From a virus (taxonomy: Duplodnaviria; Heunggongvirae; Uroviricota; Caudoviricetes): a stretch of DNA of 48,566 nucleotides. Under the pieces are notes generated by a model that did no database searches, was not told the origin of the DNA, and saw only the letters and a program-made list of their open reading frames with translations. This document shows positions 3,027 through 41,298 of the stretch, piece after piece (position 1 is the first letter of the stretch; each line of letters starts with the position of its first letter). A program made the translations under genes and the position numbers. Location: positions 1 through 48,566 of the IMG/VR virus record IMGVR_UViG_2636415673_000004. The stretch is one strand, 5' to 3'.

Positions 3027-5383
3027 TATACGTATTCCTTAAGCTGCGTATCTGACAATGCTCTGTTCCAGAAACGGAGGTTTTTTATATGACCATTAAG
3101 GTGTCGTAATCCTGTCGTCGTTTGCCCCCCGATACGAATCACGGCTGCTTCACGAATATATTTCCATACTGTTTTTGTTTCAGCGCTTATATGCTTATTT
3201 GCAAATGAGCATGTCATGCCGTCAGCCTTAACCCTGAATCCCATAACGAGATCCCTTACTCCGCATGATTCATATACACGTCGGTTAGCCCCGCCTATAT
3301 CGCAATACGAATAACCGTCCTGACTGATAGTTCCAGAAGAACCAAACCCCATAATAAATGGGCCTCCGGACTGGTGATTTTCTGAATCAATGACACGCGG
3401 TGCAGCATTATGAGAAATAAACCAGTTTTTATGGACTTCCACCATGAACGTAAAAGGCATGGTATACATATTTTTCATCAGCGGAAATTTACATAAATCT
3501 GATGCACGAGTCGCTGGCTCTGTTGTCGTTATGATGAAGGAAGTTGCACAAGCACCATACTCGAATTGCGGGGTGGTTACTTCTATCCAGTCACCTGTTG
3601 CAAAAGCTCCCACAGCTCTGTCGGCTGCAATTTGCAGCTGCGTACCAACCATTCCCCATTCTGGCAGACATTTCAGTGTTGCCTGAAAATATATCCATCC
3701 ACTACCAGGGTCGATTTCAAAGTTTGCTGTTAATAGCTGGGCATTGCCACCAGTAATTTGTAGTTCATGGGTCTGTAATGACAAATAGGCGTCGCAAAGG
3801 AAGGTGTATCCTTCCGAGTTATACCGTTCAAAACGGATACGTGCGCGAACATTGAGATCACTTCTTACCCTGAACGACGCGGTAACATACGGACCTTTAC
3901 TGTACTGATCATCGCCAGTCACATCTATGCCTTTGTTACCAGCAACTGTGCATATATTTCTCCCTGTTGTCGTTCCTGCTATATCGCTTCCTACCGTGAA
4001 ACGTCCATATTTAAACTCAAATTCATCTGTTGATGATGTTACAGATATACCACCGCTTTTATTCCACGCATCAGGATTAAAACTATTTACGAACATGTTT
4101 GTTCGCTGATTCTCTATCAGCAAACCATATTTTTCAAAACGAGGAACGTTATTACCTGCCACGGTAATATGCCCGGACTTATCAATATACGTTGCAGATG
4201 AAGCCCGGCTAAATTGGCATATGCCATTAACTGGCACAGTGATTTCATCGCTGCCGATGGTTATTGTTTTATACCCCGGCGCATACCCTGTTATCGCTTC
4301 CAGAGAATCATTCAAGGGTAGCCAGATATCAGGAAGCGGAGGGACAGAAGCAGGATCAGCGGCATCTTCTGCAATCCGGGCTGCATTCTCTGCTCTTGTT
4401 GCGGCTGACGTTGCTTCTGTCTCGCTGGCTGCTGCTTTTGTTTCGCTCGCCTTTGCGTTAGTTTCACTGGTTTTTGCAGCTTTTTGGCTATTAGCTGCCG
4501 CTGTTGCAGAACCAGCTGCAGCACTCTCGCTTTCGGCTGCTGCATCCTGACTGCTTTTCGCCGCAGTTTCGCTGGCTTTGGCATTCGTTTCGCTGGTCTT
4601 CGCTGCCGTCTGGCTGGACTTTGCGTTAGTTTCACTCGTCTTCGCAGCTTTCTGGCTGTTAGCCGCAGCAGTTGCTGATCCAGCTGCTGAAGTCGCAGAA
4701 CCGGCTGCCGCGCTCTCGCTTTGGGCTGCTGCAACCTGGCTGTTTTTTGCCGCAGTTTCACTGGCTTTGGCATTCGTTTCGCTGGTCTTCGCTGCCGTCT
4801 GGCTGGACTTTGCGTTGGTTTCGCTCGTCTTTGCGGCTGTCTCGCTGTTTTTCGCGTTGGTTTCTGATTTTTTGGCTGCTGTCGCGGAGTTTGCCGATGC
4901 AGTCTGTGAGGTCGCTGCCGCCTGTGCGCTGTTAGCTGCATTCGTTTCTGAGGTTTTCGCCGCGTTCTTCGATGATGCCGCTGCAGTTTCGGATTTCTTT
5001 GCCGCCGCTGCGCTCTGAGAGGCGGCTTCGGCGTTGCGTGCCGCTTCTTCCACCATTTCCTCAAAACGGCGCAATGCCTCCGGCATGACATCATCTTCCG
5101 TCATGGCACCGAGAAAATCATTCAGCGTACCTGGTCTGGAACCTTCATAGACGGTAATGGTCCCGGCATGTGAAGGCGGAAAACCTTCAACCAGCAGGGT
5201 GACGCTGTACTGGCCATACTCAACATCCATGCTGTAACGCCCGGCTTCATCAGGATTTTCAGAGGCCACCGTGTTCACCAGTACCGTGGTGCTGTTACGC
5301 TTTGCCTTCAGTTGAATAGTGCAGTTCTGTATTGGTTTTCCCGCACCATCTTTCAGCACACCTGAGATTTTTACTGCTGCCAT
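3026..5383 (-). CDS. stf: Side tail fibre protein Stf (about 785 aa) with lambda-Stf-like N-terminus, Ala/Ser/Thr tandem repeats and LamG-like C-terminal domain
   Basis: N-terminus MAAVKISGVLKDG... resembles lambda Stf; repeated KTSETNAK units; C-terminus ends in a ...NLRFWNRALSDTQL motif. ATG at 5383 preferred over GTG at 5389. Confidence 0.8.
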   Translation of the reverse strand: MAAVKISGVLKDGAGKPIQNCTIQLKAKRNSTTVLVNTVASENPDEAGRYSMDVEYGQYSVTLLVEGFPPSHAGTITVYEGSRPGTLNDFLGAMTEDDVMPEALRRFEEMVEEAARNAEAASQSAAAAKKSETAAASSKNAAKTSETNAANSAQAAATSQTASANSATAAKKSETNAKNSETAAKTSETNAKSSQTAAKTSETNAKASETAAKNSQVAAAQSESAAAGSATSAAGSATAAANSQKAAKTSETNAKSSQTAAKTSETNAKASETAAKSSQDAAAESESAAAGSATAAANSQKAAKTSETNAKASETKAAASETEATSAATRAENAARIAEDAADPASVPPLPDIWLPLNDSLEAITGYAPGYKTITIGSDEITVPVNGICQFSRASSATYIDKSGHITVAGNNVPRFEKYGLLIENQRTNMFVNSFNPDAWNKSGGISVTSSTDEFEFKYGRFTVGSDIAGTTTGRNICTVAGNKGIDVTGDDQYSKGPYVTASFRVRSDLNVRARIRFERYNSEGYTFLCDAYLSLQTHELQITGGNAQLLTANFEIDPGSGWIYFQATLKCLPEWGMVGTQLQIAADRAVGAFATGDWIEVTTPQFEYGACATSFIITTTEPATRASDLCKFPLMKNMYTMPFTFMVEVHKNWFISHNAAPRVIDSENHQSGGPFIMGFGSSGTISQDGYSYCDIGGANRRVYESCGVRDLVMGFRVKADGMTCSFANKHISAETKTVWKYIREAAVIRIGGQTTTGLRHLNGHIKNLRFWNRALSDTQLKEYV
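4420..4935. repeat. In-frame tandem DNA repeats (about 189-bp period) inside stf
   Basis: The block ccgcagtttc(g/a)ctggctttggcattcgtttcgctggtcttcgctgccgtctggctggactttgcgtt occurs at about 4561 and 4750, with degenerate copies upstream. Confidence 0.7.
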
Positions 5384-26800: not shown

Positions 26801-27003
26801 ATTTTCACTTTCTTAAATCTAACGACAGACGGCTAACATTTAAGTATTGTGAAATATTATCAAATGTAATCATCATTGATTTACAAAAGATACATTTTGC
26901 CCCGAAAGGATTCCTGTCAGAAACATCAAAAGATGATGTTCTATACTGAGAACCATGGCAACACGGGCATCTAAAGTGAATATGGTTTGTAATATTTTCT
27001 ACC

Positions 27004-27216
27004 TCAAAGTGCCACTACATGAACAGCCGCGGGGCCTTTAGGTCCGTTCTCAATACCAAATTCGACTTGCTGATTCTCAGTTAACGTTTTGAAATCGTTG
27101 CTCTGAATAGCTGAGAAATGGACAAACACATCTTTGCTACCATCTTTCGGCGTGATGAAACCAAAACCTTTTTCAGGGTTAAACCATTTCACTAAACCAG
27201 TCATTTTGTTAGACAT
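27004..27216 (-). CDS. cspI: Cold-shock protein CspI (70 aa)
   Basis: [45 protein letters not shown]... is a cold-shock domain with RNP motifs. Confidence 0.85.
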
Positions 27217-27584
27217 CATTATTACCTTTTGAAGAAGTTAGCCCTTGGGCAGAATGGTCCGAAAAAAATATCAGAGAGAAAAACCAACAAGGAAATCTCA
27301 AGAGGTACAAATAATAAAATTATAACAATGACTGCTTCAGATAATTTTGTAACAAACCAGAACACCATTAACGCATGATTAACCAACCATAGCAAGGATT
27401 ACTTTTGTAAAGAAAAACACACGAATGAAACAATAGCTTTATTTATTAATAAAACGTATCATTCTGTCTAATGACCTTTTATCTTACCCTTAAGATTTCA
27501 AGGATTTTGACTCATGGAAGAGTCCTTTTTATTTAAATTTCACATTCAGCGCTAAAAATAATCCGATTTAATGTTAATCTACAT

Positions 27585-28606
<1,022 letters not shown>

Positions 28607-28711
28607 GGATATTTATCAGGATTTATCGGTTTCTGAACCCTGGATATGTTTATCTGTCCCGGCCTGTTGAATCAGGCGGGGAAAAGGTAAAGACAATCAA
28701 GAGGATTATTT

Positions 28712-28984
28712 ATGGACAATAACACCATTTCTCTACAGGAGTTGCTCGACTGCATTTCAAAGCTTCGGGATGATGTAAATGCCCTCACTGTTGCATTTTC
28801 ATATTTGGCCTTATCAATTCCCAGAGAACAAATGCAACCAACACTGGCATCGCTCCTGCTTGAATCACGCAACCCCAAATGGTCCCAGGAACAACAAAAT
28901 TCTTTCAAGTGGCTGGCGGCATTACTGGAAGAAAAATATGCTGGTAAAATTACCATTTCGGTGGAGTCTTCAGAGAATCAGTAA
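28712..28984 (+). CDS. Hypothetical protein (90 aa) encoded antisense inside the lysis cassette
   Basis: Strong RBS (AAGAGGA, 6 nt, ATG) and non-repetitive sequence MDNNTISLQELLDCISKLRDDVNALTVAF...; its 3' end overlaps the convergent 28950..29294 gene by 35 nt. Confidence 0.45.
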   Translation: MDNNTISLQELLDCISKLRDDVNALTVAFSYLALSIPREQMQPTLASLLLESRNPKWSQEQQNSFKWLAALLEEKYAGKITISVESSENQ

Positions 28985-29294
28985 TTCTTCCTGGTAGCTT
29001 TCCTTTGTAAGTTATCCACACATTCTGCGCCTCTAAAATTACGGGGCGCTTTTCCGGCGACTGCTCATCCCCTTCACATAACCCGGCTGCAACTTCCAGG
29101 AAGACCTGTCTGATGCTCCTTCTGGCTGCTGCCTCATAAAACTCCAGCGCGGCACCTTCAACACGGTCCAGCGAGATGTCCAGGTCAAAAATTTCACCGT
29201 CAAAGCGTTTTTTGTCCCTTAATGCTACAGTTACCGCAACTTTATTCTCAAAATTGCGGATCCCTTTCACAATCAGTTCATAGTTTTGTGTCAT
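28950..29294 (-). CDS. Hypothetical protein between holin and endolysin (about 114 aa; possibly YdfR-like)
   Basis: ATG at 29294 with GGGGAGAG upstream, 4 nt after the holin stop; MTQNYELIVKGIRNFENKVAVT.... Confidence 0.5.
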   Translation of the reverse strand: MTQNYELIVKGIRNFENKVAVTVALRDKKRFDGEIFDLDISLDRVEGAALEFYEAAARRSIRQVFLEVAAGLCEGDEQSPEKRPVILEAQNVWITYKGKLPGRITDSLKTPPKW

Positions 29295-29298
29295 TGAA

Positions 29299-29514
29299 TT
29301 ACTCTCCCCGTGCAACCTTACGCTTGTCTTCTTTAATCTTGAAATAAAGGTTTGTCAGGTACGTCAGCAAGCCAAATACCAGACTACCCAGCACACCGAT
29401 TGCAGCCCACTGTGACGGAGTTACTTTATCGAGTAACTGCAATGCCCAGAAACCAGCATTACCAGCCGATGTGCCATAGGCGATACCTGTTGTTAACTTA
29501 TCCATTGATTTCAT
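29299..29514 (-). CDS. essQ: Phage-21-type pinholin S (dual-start, 71/68 aa)
   Basis: [28 protein letters not shown]... with two in-frame starts (M1 and M4) and two TMDs; paired with a SAR endolysin. Confidence 0.85.
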
Positions 29515-29732
29515 ATCCTCACCCCGATGTACACAGATGGTGCAATATGTTTGAAAAGATCGGAGTCTATGGGGTAGTTTTTATAGCAAACGTTGTTCTC
29601 AACGGCGCTAAAAAACAGACACATTAAAAATGTGGGTAATTATTTTAAAAGAAAATCATATATTAAATAATAATACGAGATATGTTTTCATATTTAGTGT
29701 ACTGTATACGGCCATTTATACAGGAAAAGCCT

Positions 29733-29903
29733 ATGTCAGAACGTAAAGACTCAAAATCACGCCGTAATTATCTCGTTAAATGTTCCTGCCCAAACTGCAC
29801 CCAAGAGTCAGAACACAGTTTTTCAAGAATACAAAAAGGTGCCCTTTTGATCTGCCCTCATTGCAACAAAGTATTCCAGACAAATCTTAAAGCTGTAGCT
29901 TGA
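29733..29903 (+). CDS. ynfU: Small zinc-ribbon protein (56 aa), YnfU-like
   Basis: MSERKDSKSRRNYLVKCSCPNCTQESEHSFSRIQKGALLICPHCNKVF has a CxxC...CxxC ribbon; ATG at 29733. Confidence 0.5.
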   Translation: MSERKDSKSRRNYLVKCSCPNCTQESEHSFSRIQKGALLICPHCNKVFQTNLKAVA

Positions 29904-30266
29904 TTGATTTTATTCGTAACAAGTATTTTTTATATTTTAATAACATATTTAAAGCAGATAATAAAAAACCCGCCTGAGCGGGTTTAATATTGTGGTACTT
30001 TTTGTGGGAGTCATCCACTTACGCACTTTGTTTTGCTATGCCAGCAGTTAGCTTCTGCTGTAAAACTATTCATGCAGCAAACCTGCACTTCACCACAATG
30101 GTTAGCATACTTTTCCTGATTAAGTTATTGCCAAATATGCTGGCCATTGTTTCATGTATTGGACCTCCTTACTATTTATTAAAGAGATCCAATATTCACC
30201 ACTCTGTCTGTATCTCCACTCAGGCATCAGCCTTCTTCGTTATCGTATACAGACAAACTATGAATT

Positions 30267-30482
30267 TTAATCAGTAATTATGACATTTGCTGCTGCAGGA
30301 CCTTTAGCACCACTCTCTACAGAGAAGGTAACCTTTTGACCTTCAAATAAGGTTCGATAATTATCATTCTGAATCGCAGAAAAATGCACAAACACATCTT
30401 TACTACCATCAACAGGAGAAATAAAGCCAAAACCTTTATCAGCGTTAAACCATTTTACTAAACCAGTCATTTTATTTGACAT
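30267..30482 (-). CDS. cspB: Cold-shock protein CspB (71 aa)
   Basis: [45 protein letters not shown].... Confidence 0.85.
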
Positions 30483-30782
30483 TCTACATTCCTTAACTTG
30501 AGCCTTTCGGCATAAATGGCTTGTATAACAGAAACGACTTCGTACTTAATTGGAGAGACTCAAAGAAGGAATAAGTGAATAACACCTGAAATGAGAACTG
30601 CTTTAGTAAACTACTTCGTATATCGTCTGTTCTTCAAACCGACGCAATCATTAACGCATAGTTGAACATATGAAGCAATGTTTATTTTAGACATCCAGCC
30701 ATCTTCAACCCCATCAAAAAACTATAGCTTTCTTCAGGAACGTGTGTATAGTGCGCCAAGTTATCAGTATTAAGGAATTTTT

Positions 30783-31417: not shown

Positions 31418-32170
31418 TTATCTCGTCACCTTTCTCAATTGTGCTTCAGCGTAAGATTCCTCCTGCCAGCACTTTGTAACCAGTTTATCAATGACATTTG
31501 CATATCCTTTATACCACTGATAATCACTCAGGTCCGGTACCAGCTTCTGGACATGATGCCGCGCCAGTGTGGTTGGTAAACGACTAAACCGTTTTCCATT
31601 GCAACGCCCACAAATCTTATAAACAGGTGTGCCATGAAGCCGGGTCCTTTTTTCATCCAGGACAATACCTTTACCCTTACACCCTCTGCACGCTGTGCTG
31701 ACTTCTCCCTTACCATGGCAATGCTGACATAGTTCCTTCACCCACTCTTCTTTGATAACAGATTCCCCGCTTCTGGAGTGTTTCACCACTTCGCGCAATA
31801 CATTATGAAATCCAGTACCAGCACAATGCTCACAACGAGCCTTACTTGCCGCAGACCTGGAATAATCAGCAAAGGCAAAATTCACAAGGTAAGGAATAAT
31901 CTGTAGCCGGGTTTCTTCACTCAATTTATTCAATGTCGGGTTATCCAGTGCCATCGCGTAATTGAGCAGACCTTCAATCGCAAACTGAGGATCCTGAACA
32001 CCAACTTTTGCCAGGAATAAGGCAAACCCAAGCGGTGCTTTCGACTGCACCATCCCCTGCGCAGCCATCACATCCGTAATCGTTAAACCACCAGAGCCTG
32101 TCGCCGGTGCGTCATCACTCAATTTTGGAGATTTTGGGGAGTAATATTTTGGTAAGGCTTCAAGGTTCAT
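31418..32170 (-). CDS. quuQ: Late-gene antiterminator Q (250 aa, QuuQ-like)
   Basis: Cys-rich zinc-binding motifs (CEHCAGTG...CQHCHGKG...CRGCKGKG...CGRCNGK); same length as QuuQ; sits before the late promoter and lysis genes. Confidence 0.8.
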   Translation of the reverse strand: MNLEALPKYYSPKSPKLSDDAPATGSGGLTITDVMAAQGMVQSKAPLGFALFLAKVGVQDPQFAIEGLLNYAMALDNPTLNKLSEETRLQIIPYLVNFAFADYSRSAASKARCEHCAGTGFHNVLREVVKHSRSGESVIKEEWVKELCQHCHGKGEVSTACRGCKGKGIVLDEKRTRLHGTPVYKICGRCNGKRFSRLPTTLARHHVQKLVPDLSDYQWYKGYANVIDKLVTKCWQEESYAEAQLRKVTR

Positions 32171-40473: not shown

Positions 40474-41298
40474 ATGTCTCAGAACTTAGACGCAACCGCA
40501 ATTAATCAAATCCATGCCCTTATTTCTGCTCAGGGTGTTAATGAAATTATCAGTAAGATTGGTGCCGATGCTGTGGCATTGCCTGAGAATTTCCGCATTC
40601 ATGATCTGGAAAAATTTAATTTAAATCGCTTCCGTTTCCGTGGTGCGCTTTCCACTGCCAGCATCGATGACTTTACCCGTTATTCTAAAGATCTTGCAGA
40701 TGAAGGCACCCGCTGCTTTATCGATGCCGATAATATGCGAGCCGTCAGTGTGCTTAACCTGGGTACTATTGGTGAACCAGGTCACGCAGATAACACCGCC
40801 ACACTCAAACTGAAAAAGACAGCACCGTTCTCTGCTCTGTTGTCTGTTAATGGCGAGCGTAACTCCCAGAAGTCACTGGCAGAATGGATTGAAGACTGGG
40901 CCGACTACCTTGTGGGCTTTGATGCTAATGGTGACGCTATTCAGGCAACAAAAGCGGCTGCGGCGGTCCGAAAAATCACGATTGAAGCAAACCAGACCGC
41001 TGATTTTGAAGATAATGACTTCAGCGGCAAACGCTCCCTGATGGAGTCTGTCGAAGCGAAGACCAAAGATATTATGCCAGTGGCATTTGAATTTAAATGC
41101 GTTCCGTTTGAAGGTCTGAAAGAACGTCCATTTAAATTACGCCTCAGCATTATCACTGGCGATCGTCCTGTACTGGTTCTGCGCATTATTCAGCTGGAAG
41201 CAGTGCAGGAAGAAATGGCTAACGAATTTCGTGATCTGCTTGTTGAGAAATTCAAAGACAGCAAAGTAGAAACCTTTATTGGTACTTTCACCGCCTGA
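40474..41298 (+). CDS. yfdQ: YfdQ-like (DUF2303-family) protein (274 aa)
   Basis: Same length as K-12 CPS-53 YfdQ and in the same neighbourhood as YfdR/YfdS-like genes; GTGAGGA RBS. Confidence 0.6.

Follow-up and report, generated by a model that had tools for sequence, protein, structure and literature searches.

Our analysis indicates that a small plus-strand open reading frame (ORF) in the lysis cassette of an Escherichia coli prophage is a moron gene, which the lysogen would express on its own and whose product would act as a modulator of the host rather than on the timing of lysis. We give this joint reading a probability of about three in four. That the ORF is a real protein-coding moron is, taken by itself, very probable. 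The term moron is used here for an autonomous cargo cassette of temperate phages; such cassettes interrupt a contiguous region, carry a sigma-70-like promoter and a factor-independent terminator, deviate in G+C content and are expressed from the repressed prophage (PMC3714127).

The window, that is, the whole stretch of 48,566 nucleotides analysed, comprises a largely complete Qin-like lambdoid prophage of E. coli. Its late genes are on the minus strand and run from the Q antiterminator gene (31418-32170) via the lysis, terminase and head genes to the tail genes. The features of the lysis cassette and of the ORF locus are listed in Table 1. The cassette is flanked by the cold-shock cargo genes cspI and cspB, which, together with their 5' leaders, are spanned by the two full-length matches to the Rfam cspA thermoregulator (26958-27373 and 30204-30643, minus strand; 114 and 157 bits). 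A further small plus-strand ORF, zinc-binding ynfU (29682-29903), lies just upstream of essQ on the opposite strand; it has 73 aa as a mechanical ORF and 56 aa as annotated in K-12 and CB9615. The Rfam scan found no known RNA at the ORF locus itself.

Table 1. Coordinates of the lysis cassette genes, the ORF and the elements around it
Feature	Position	Strand	Remarks
rzpQ	27585-28076	-	lysis cassette gene
rrrQ	28073..28606	-	SAR-type phage lysozyme (SAR endolysin)
Module absent from K-12 Qin	28619..29085	.	from alignment with K-12; cassette plus replaced ydfR 3' end
Candidate sigma-70 promoter, weak	28623..28650	+	TTATCG, 16-nt spacer, TATGTT; 7/12 consensus positions
Exchangeable cargo core	28651-29042		breakpoints against L241-type loci: 28650 and 29043
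Shadow ORF, 94 codons	28672..28956	-	not a gene; third codon positions coincide with those of the plus ORF
Shine-Dalgarno AAGAGGA	28699..28705	+	GAGGA core invariant in 36 haplotypes
ORF, 90 codons	28712..28984	+	ATG at 28712, stop codon ends at 28984; RefSeq WP_001315200.1; PHROG 2411
YdfR/DUF1327 gene (ydfR)	28950..29294	-	114 aa; Pfam DUF1327 E=9e-43; follows essQ
Terminator-like hairpin	29027..29053	+	GCGCCTC, 9-nt loop, GGGGCGC, TTTT; -12.3 kcal/mol; within ydfR tail coding sequence
essQ	29299..29514	-	phage-21-type class II holin (pinholin); lysis cassette gene 1

The plus-strand frame as a gene

An earlier note, made from the sequence alone, had drawn attention to a 90-aa plus-strand ORF with a near-ideal ribosome-binding site, and both were found exactly as placed: AAGAGGA lies 6 nt before the ATG. 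A similar Shine-Dalgarno sequence also precedes the homologues in the iha-linked E. coli remnant (L164), Citrobacter, Serratia and Sodalis, while that of the plasmid/L163 copy is weak. The ORF was said to lie between the endolysin gene and the holin-proximal gene and to be convergent with both; the location is correct, but the convergence holds for ydfR and essQ and not for rrrQ, to which the ORF is divergent and head-to-head, with the two starts 105 nt apart. It was also called antisense within the lysis cassette. This is true of the late polycistronic transcript but hardly of coding sequence, as the overlap with the 3' end of ydfR was confirmed to be 35 nt (28950-28984) and 238 of the 273 nt of the ORF lie inside the 343-nt gap between ydfR and rrrQ. 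With only 35 of 273 nt over ydfR, the ORF is not an overprinted or embedded antisense gene.

Of 5000 shuffled versions of 28607-29000, 49 (about 1%) contained an ATG-initiated ORF of 90 codons or more. The evolutionary evidence is far stronger than this shuffle-based chance figure. RefSeq/PGAP annotates the ORF in near-identical prophages as the “hypothetical protein” WP_001315200.1, and the homology search that the earlier note had called for matched it from end to end to PHROG 2411 (E=4.9e-57; residues 1-90 aligned with all 90 profile positions). The same note had held that a gene would be refuted by lack of conservation of the frame in related sequences; the frame proved to be conserved and under purifying selection.

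For the selection analysis, 160 IMG/VR loci were gathered by protein similarity and gave 36 DNA haplotypes in five allele groups; the order ydfR-ORF-rrrQ was identical in all 160. This sampling biases the integrity of the ORF, not dN/dS. Over the 79 non-overlapping codons, pooled Nei-Gojobori pN/pS was 0.26 in the ORF frame versus 1.1-1.8 in four other frames. Pairwise dN/dS of the ORF, copies from other genomic contexts included, was 0.14-0.37, with binomial p down to 2.5e-7. Variable sites in the close allele set were distributed 10/11/21 over the codon positions, a weak periodicity; since codon periodicity cannot separate the plus and minus frames, dN/dS and stop-codon counts were used.

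To remove the ascertainment due to protein matching, IMG/VR was re-sampled with a 37-nt pattern upstream of the ORF. The ORF was intact in 101 of the 111 evaluable pattern-chosen loci, compared with 96% for rrrQ and 93% for ydfR in the same loci. The remaining copies (about 9%) were disrupted, and frameshifted and truncated forms also occur in the protein databases; many lysogens can thus do without the gene. Among complete E. coli genomes, 1207 of 5426 contain the ORF interior, and a CDS was annotated at the ORF in all 60 of 60 evenly spaced records among the carriers.

One alternative is that the ORF is not a gene, being either a chance or decaying frame or the mere reflection of the 94-codon minus-strand shadow ORF as the real frame. 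The shadow ORF runs in the same direction as the operon and begins with an ATG that overlaps the ydfR stop codon, and its pN/pS of 0.23 equals the plus-frame value; several truncated or frameshifted plus-frame variants are known as well. Because the two frames share their third codon positions, dN/dS (0.23 and 0.26) cannot tell them apart. Stop codons can. The shadow frame is interrupted by in-frame stops in the L083 (more than 54 contigs), L056 and L068 allele groups and in every distant homologue, whereas the plus frame is open at 90 codons where the shadow frame has stops. In addition, the Shine-Dalgarno sequence is conserved for the plus ORF and none is present for the minus ORF, and the plus-frame homologues, at 30-60% identity, form a coherent family with a confident predicted fold. 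The shadow ORF was thus rejected as a true gene on account of its stop codons in other alleles and homologues, and we consider it extremely improbable that the locus holds no plus-strand gene.

A probable self-contained cassette in an exchangeable slot

The suggestion that the ORF could be a moron is well supported by its absence from K-12 Qin, its low G+C content, its own Shine-Dalgarno sequence, its terminator hairpin and the exchangeability of the cargo. In K-12 Qin, which lacks the ORF, ydfR overlaps the start of rrrQ directly at an ATGA junction; relative to it, approximately 460 nt including the ORF are inserted or substituted here. The ydfR/rrrQ region is present in 4322 E. coli genomes, the ORF in only about 1100-1200. 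The G+C content of the cassette (28651-29026) is 42.6%, as against 51.3% for rrrQ, 48.5% for the ydfR core and 50.6% for the window.

On the upstream side, the promoter scan found no site at a threshold of 9/12, and the candidate promoter in Table 1 is a weak one. It lies in a block (28612-28650) that is the most conserved part of the upstream sequence and nearly invariant among the haplotypes. The iha-linked remnant keeps TTATCA-16-TATGTT, and the block is shared with an alternative cargo cassette up to the end of TATGTT. On the downstream side, the terminator-like hairpin is predicted in silico to terminate plus-strand but not minus-strand transcripts, with four T's only. It was passed over by the terminator scan because its loop is longer than 8 nt. 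The hairpin is almost invariant in the 36 variants, although this conservation is confounded by its position within the ydfR coding sequence; a perfect stem is also present in L164, a copy without ydfR.

In five IMG/VR contigs (L241, L242, L247, L249, L259), the slot is filled by another plus-strand ORF. Homology between L241 and the window stops right after TATGTT (28650) and resumes within the terminator stem (29043); the L241 cargo has the same stem with a different loop. The alternative cargo ORF encodes 79 aa (MQKEVFINITADC...; phrog_21218) and has no described function, and hhalign found its product and that of the ORF to be unrelated. Judged from these alignments, cargo is exchanged within the lysis operon at the slot that separates the ydfR core from rrrQ.

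Other rearrangements were observed at related loci. Upstream of the Citrobacter homologue (L167, about 4880-4905) and of the L241-type alternative cargo ORF alike lies a perfect hairpin, CGCCAGTG-GTAGGA-CACTGGCG, which may be a common regulatory or recombination element. L011 (2923-4233) has a 1.3-kb insertion that breaks the tail region of ydfR. In L212, sequence 97% identical to window positions 40940-41235 follows the upstream block in place of the ORF; it may be a mobile element present in the window too.

The cassette also encodes the C-terminal tail of YdfR, the 3' end of ydfR being replaced from about codon 72 relative to K-12. The length of YdfR differs with the cargo: 114 aa here, 104 aa in L241 and 103 aa in K-12. 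Swapping of cargo at the slot would explain these varied C-termini, and the 35-nt overlap with the ORF would be a by-product of ydfR reading on into the inserted cassette. [quoted passage not shown] This published region agrees with the retained part of YdfR, as only the first 72-85 residues or so are common to the variants. In the ydfR frame, pN/pS over 28986-29024 was 0.25, from few and non-independent pairs. In a Citrobacter freundii prophage (L167, 5239-5430, minus strand), a 63-aa ORF overlaps the 3' end of the Citrobacter homologue; its end, ...KITGSLRAPIKL, resembles the tail of YdfR in the window, ...RITDSLKTPPKW, while its N-terminus is unrelated to YdfR. From the sequence, the upstream gene there again seems to read into the cassette. 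At the other end of the cassette, rrrQ is without the K-12-type ATGA stop/start coupling to ydfR, and the region upstream of it (28604-28650, minus strand) has no obvious Shine-Dalgarno sequence (…aaatcctgataaatatccATG).

We propose that a self-contained cassette, consisting of a promoter-like block, a Shine-Dalgarno sequence, the ORF and a one-way intrinsic terminator, was inserted between the ydfR core and rrrQ, opposite to late transcription. The insertion would have replaced the 3' end of ydfR, which would then read through the terminator into the cassette as far as the first stop codon. The lysogen would transcribe the ORF on its own, and the protein would act on host physiology as a small protein-binding modulator, not on lysis timing. 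Such an action is likened to that of the small stress-linked proteins DinI, BssS and the Ira anti-adaptors.

The protein and its mobile family

The ORF product is an acidic protein of approximately 10 kDa (pI 4.6, GRAVY -0.32) with no hydrophobic segment. AlphaFold2, with an alignment of 39 sequences, predicted three amphipathic helices (residues 8-35, 38-52 and 59-76) and a disordered tail (79-90) at a mean pLDDT of 82.4. In this model, the product looks soluble and without a membrane segment, and the monomer pTM of 0.61 hints that it may form oligomers. Residues Y31, L32 and E51 are invariant and belong to the pattern “AFSYLAF ... ES-N”. The product matched no family in Pfam, DinI and BssS included, or in NCBIfam; the ORF product and three homologues had no PADLOC match at E<=1; the sequence-profile search of the PDB gave only a chance-level match to YibL (E=0.098); and the fold search returned no relative that would assign a function. 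A literature search on the ORF accessions and family names found no paper and no transcript, ribosome-profiling or proteomic evidence. The protein (PHROG 2411, WP_001315200.1) is named “Ybl58” in some records.

An exhaustive HMMER search of 1.8 billion representatives returned only 20 clusters. A protein identical to WP_001315200.1 is found on at least 1000 contigs, and its carriers include BL21/B strains, ST131 and O55:H7. The functional phages Chlobot, vB_EcoS-783R2 and the Stx2k-converting phage phiSTEC1575 have the ORF. Its linkage to the ydfR 3' end is invariable in E. coli prophages. In phiSTEC1575-Stx2k (L292, 2165-4392), essQ, ydfR and the ORF are followed by a second and distinct lysis module with two holin genes and an M15 metallopeptidase gene, and an IraM-like anti-adaptor gene lies on the opposite strand between stx2AB and essQ.

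Other homologues occupy different surroundings. Divergent intact E. coli copies (56-60% amino acid identity) adjoin the iha adhesin gene, where the lysis genes are gone and nothing but a degenerate rrrQ stub, together with the upstream block and the terminator, is left. Another copy, by autotransporter and HTH-domain regulator genes, was found on one chromosome and in 72 mostly conjugative plasmid records, of which the one examined is IncF. On this plasmid (p04IncF, L291) and the chromosome of strain 33F4 (L163), a 4.5-kb module that is 99.6% identical comprises the autotransporter gene, the ORF homologue (89 aa, 61% identity), a transposase fragment and the HTH-domain regulator gene. The homologue of Citrobacter and Salmonella salamae (60%) is in a prophage, upstream of the holin gene and opposite to the late genes, and homologue P0067 adjoins the terminase module, likewise opposite to the late genes.

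With profile searches, the family extended to Serratia, Chania, Sodalis, Gibbsiella, Chimaeribacter and Acerihabitans, whose proteins have about 92 aa and 30-39% identity; PHROG 2411 is matched by the homologues from Citrobacter and Serratia as well. In Serratia marcescens, S. odorifera, Chania and one further taxon, the homologue (X) has a fixed place in the chromosomal order pyrC-dinI-X-bssS-solA, following the dinI terminator and with its own Shine-Dalgarno sequence. The S. marcescens orthologue is found on at least 1000 contigs. No conserved LexA box was seen by eye, in analogy to dinI, upstream of the Serratia orthologue. In another taxon, the neighbour of the homologue is DUF892/YciE-like.

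Proposed host-directed action and its alternatives

The size and fold class of the product, its DinI/BssS and DUF892/YciE-like neighbours and the stress-linked company of the prophage cargo led us to suggest a host modulator. Judged by size, charge, fold class and neighbours, the protein could possibly bind a host protein and thereby modulate a stress or biofilm-type response; we offer this tentatively. A fuller proposal, which we regard as speculative, is that the homologues form a hitherto undescribed Enterobacterales family of small regulatory or stress proteins with three helices, its ancestral or core copy being the one between dinI and bssS. The E. coli copies would have come on mobile DNA only, in prophage lysis-operon cassettes, on IncF plasmids and in virulence islands beside iha or autotransporter genes, and the protein, expressed in the lysogen, would rewire host stress, biofilm or RNA-decay pathways by protein binding.

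The classic lambdoid morons are the closest parallel in arrangement. The bor gene of lambda lies in or next to the lysis region, opposite to late transcription. Like bor and lom, the ORF is a small single accessory gene opposite to late transcription that close relatives lack; it has predicted expression signals of its own and would not be needed for lytic growth. In contrast, Bor is an outer-membrane lipoprotein that confers serum resistance, while the ORF product is a predicted soluble, cytoplasmic helical protein with no similarity to it in sequence or fold, and bor follows Rz, whereas the ORF is inside the cassette between ydfR and the endolysin gene. The cargo genes of Qin-like and Stx phages (cspB/cspF/cspI, ynfU, gnsB and the IraM-like anti-adaptor gene) are likewise small and located around the Q-lysis region, some of them on the opposite strand; they are stress-linked but unrelated to the ORF in sequence. 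DinI, BssS and the Hha family resemble the ORF product in size (80-95 aa) and in being encoded by stand-alone genes. This is a resemblance of context, with no homology detected (hhalign probability of 0.2% against Hha), and the spread over chromosome, plasmids and islands recalls Hha-like modulators.

The earlier note had also considered a lysis-timing regulator, and this suggestion did not find support. Such a device would dampen or delay the expression of the pinholin/SAR-endolysin operon, through the protein or simply through transcription that leaves the cassette and converges on ydfR and essQ. The ORF does lie within the lysis operon and faces late transcription, it is constantly linked to the ydfR 3' end in E. 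coli prophages, and the translational coupling of rrrQ to ydfR is lost in the ORF-bearing variant. The antiholins lambda S107, S21-71, P1 LydB and T4 RI, however, target the holin, either at the membrane or within it, and are linked to lysis genes, and the ORF has only its location in a lysis cassette in common with them. Its product is predicted to be soluble, has neither a membrane or periplasmic segment nor holin-like sequence, and matches no holin family in Pfam. Intact and selected homologues occur without any lysis genes in the iha island, on IncF plasmids and at the dinI-bssS locus of Serratia. There is thus no obligate linkage to holin and endolysin genes, and selection in these settings argues that the gene is not a dedicated lysis-timing factor. 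Moreover, unrelated cargo can fill the slot, and K-12-type cassettes manage without the ORF. A lysis-timing or safety device is therefore quite improbable.

The linkage to ydfR could instead reflect a functional partnership, for example with the ORF product as a co-inherited modulator or antidote of the interaction of YdfR with RNase E. The coupling is kept even in the Stx2k phage with its different downstream endolysin module, and the binding of K-12 YdfR to the RNase E catalytic domain (PMC13232886) offers an interaction to modulate. Many ydfR genes are without the ORF, however, that of K-12 included (4322 genomes versus about 1100-1200), and the Citrobacter, plasmid, iha and Serratia homologues have no ydfR neighbour, which makes a partnership very improbable. 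A role in protecting the lysogen from phages or mobile elements, by superinfection exclusion or anti-defence, would suit a typical prophage accessory gene that is spread over prophages, conjugative plasmids and islands and has a small acidic product, as many anti-restriction and anti-defence proteins are. We regard it as unlikely, given the lack of a PADLOC match and of a partner gene and the vertically conserved core copy between dinI and bssS, which would be unusual for a defence or anti-defence gene.

We favor the reading of the ORF as a self-expressed, host-directed moron. The gene is of an ordinary kind, a moron, but its protein family, PHROG 2411, is widespread and uncharacterised. The ORF is present in roughly a fifth of complete E. 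coli genomes, and the gene is under purifying selection on prophages, plasmids and virulence islands, with a core-genome orthologue in Serratia. Its placement as autonomous cargo points experimenters to the phenotype of the lysogen and to host partners rather than to the timing of lysis. A recombination slot in lysis operons of the Qin/phage-21 type is a further outcome of our study; there the upstream block and the terminator stay constant while the cargo between them is swapped. The most notable aspects of the finding are this cargo-swap slot within a lysis operon and the protein family, for its breadth and its mobility.
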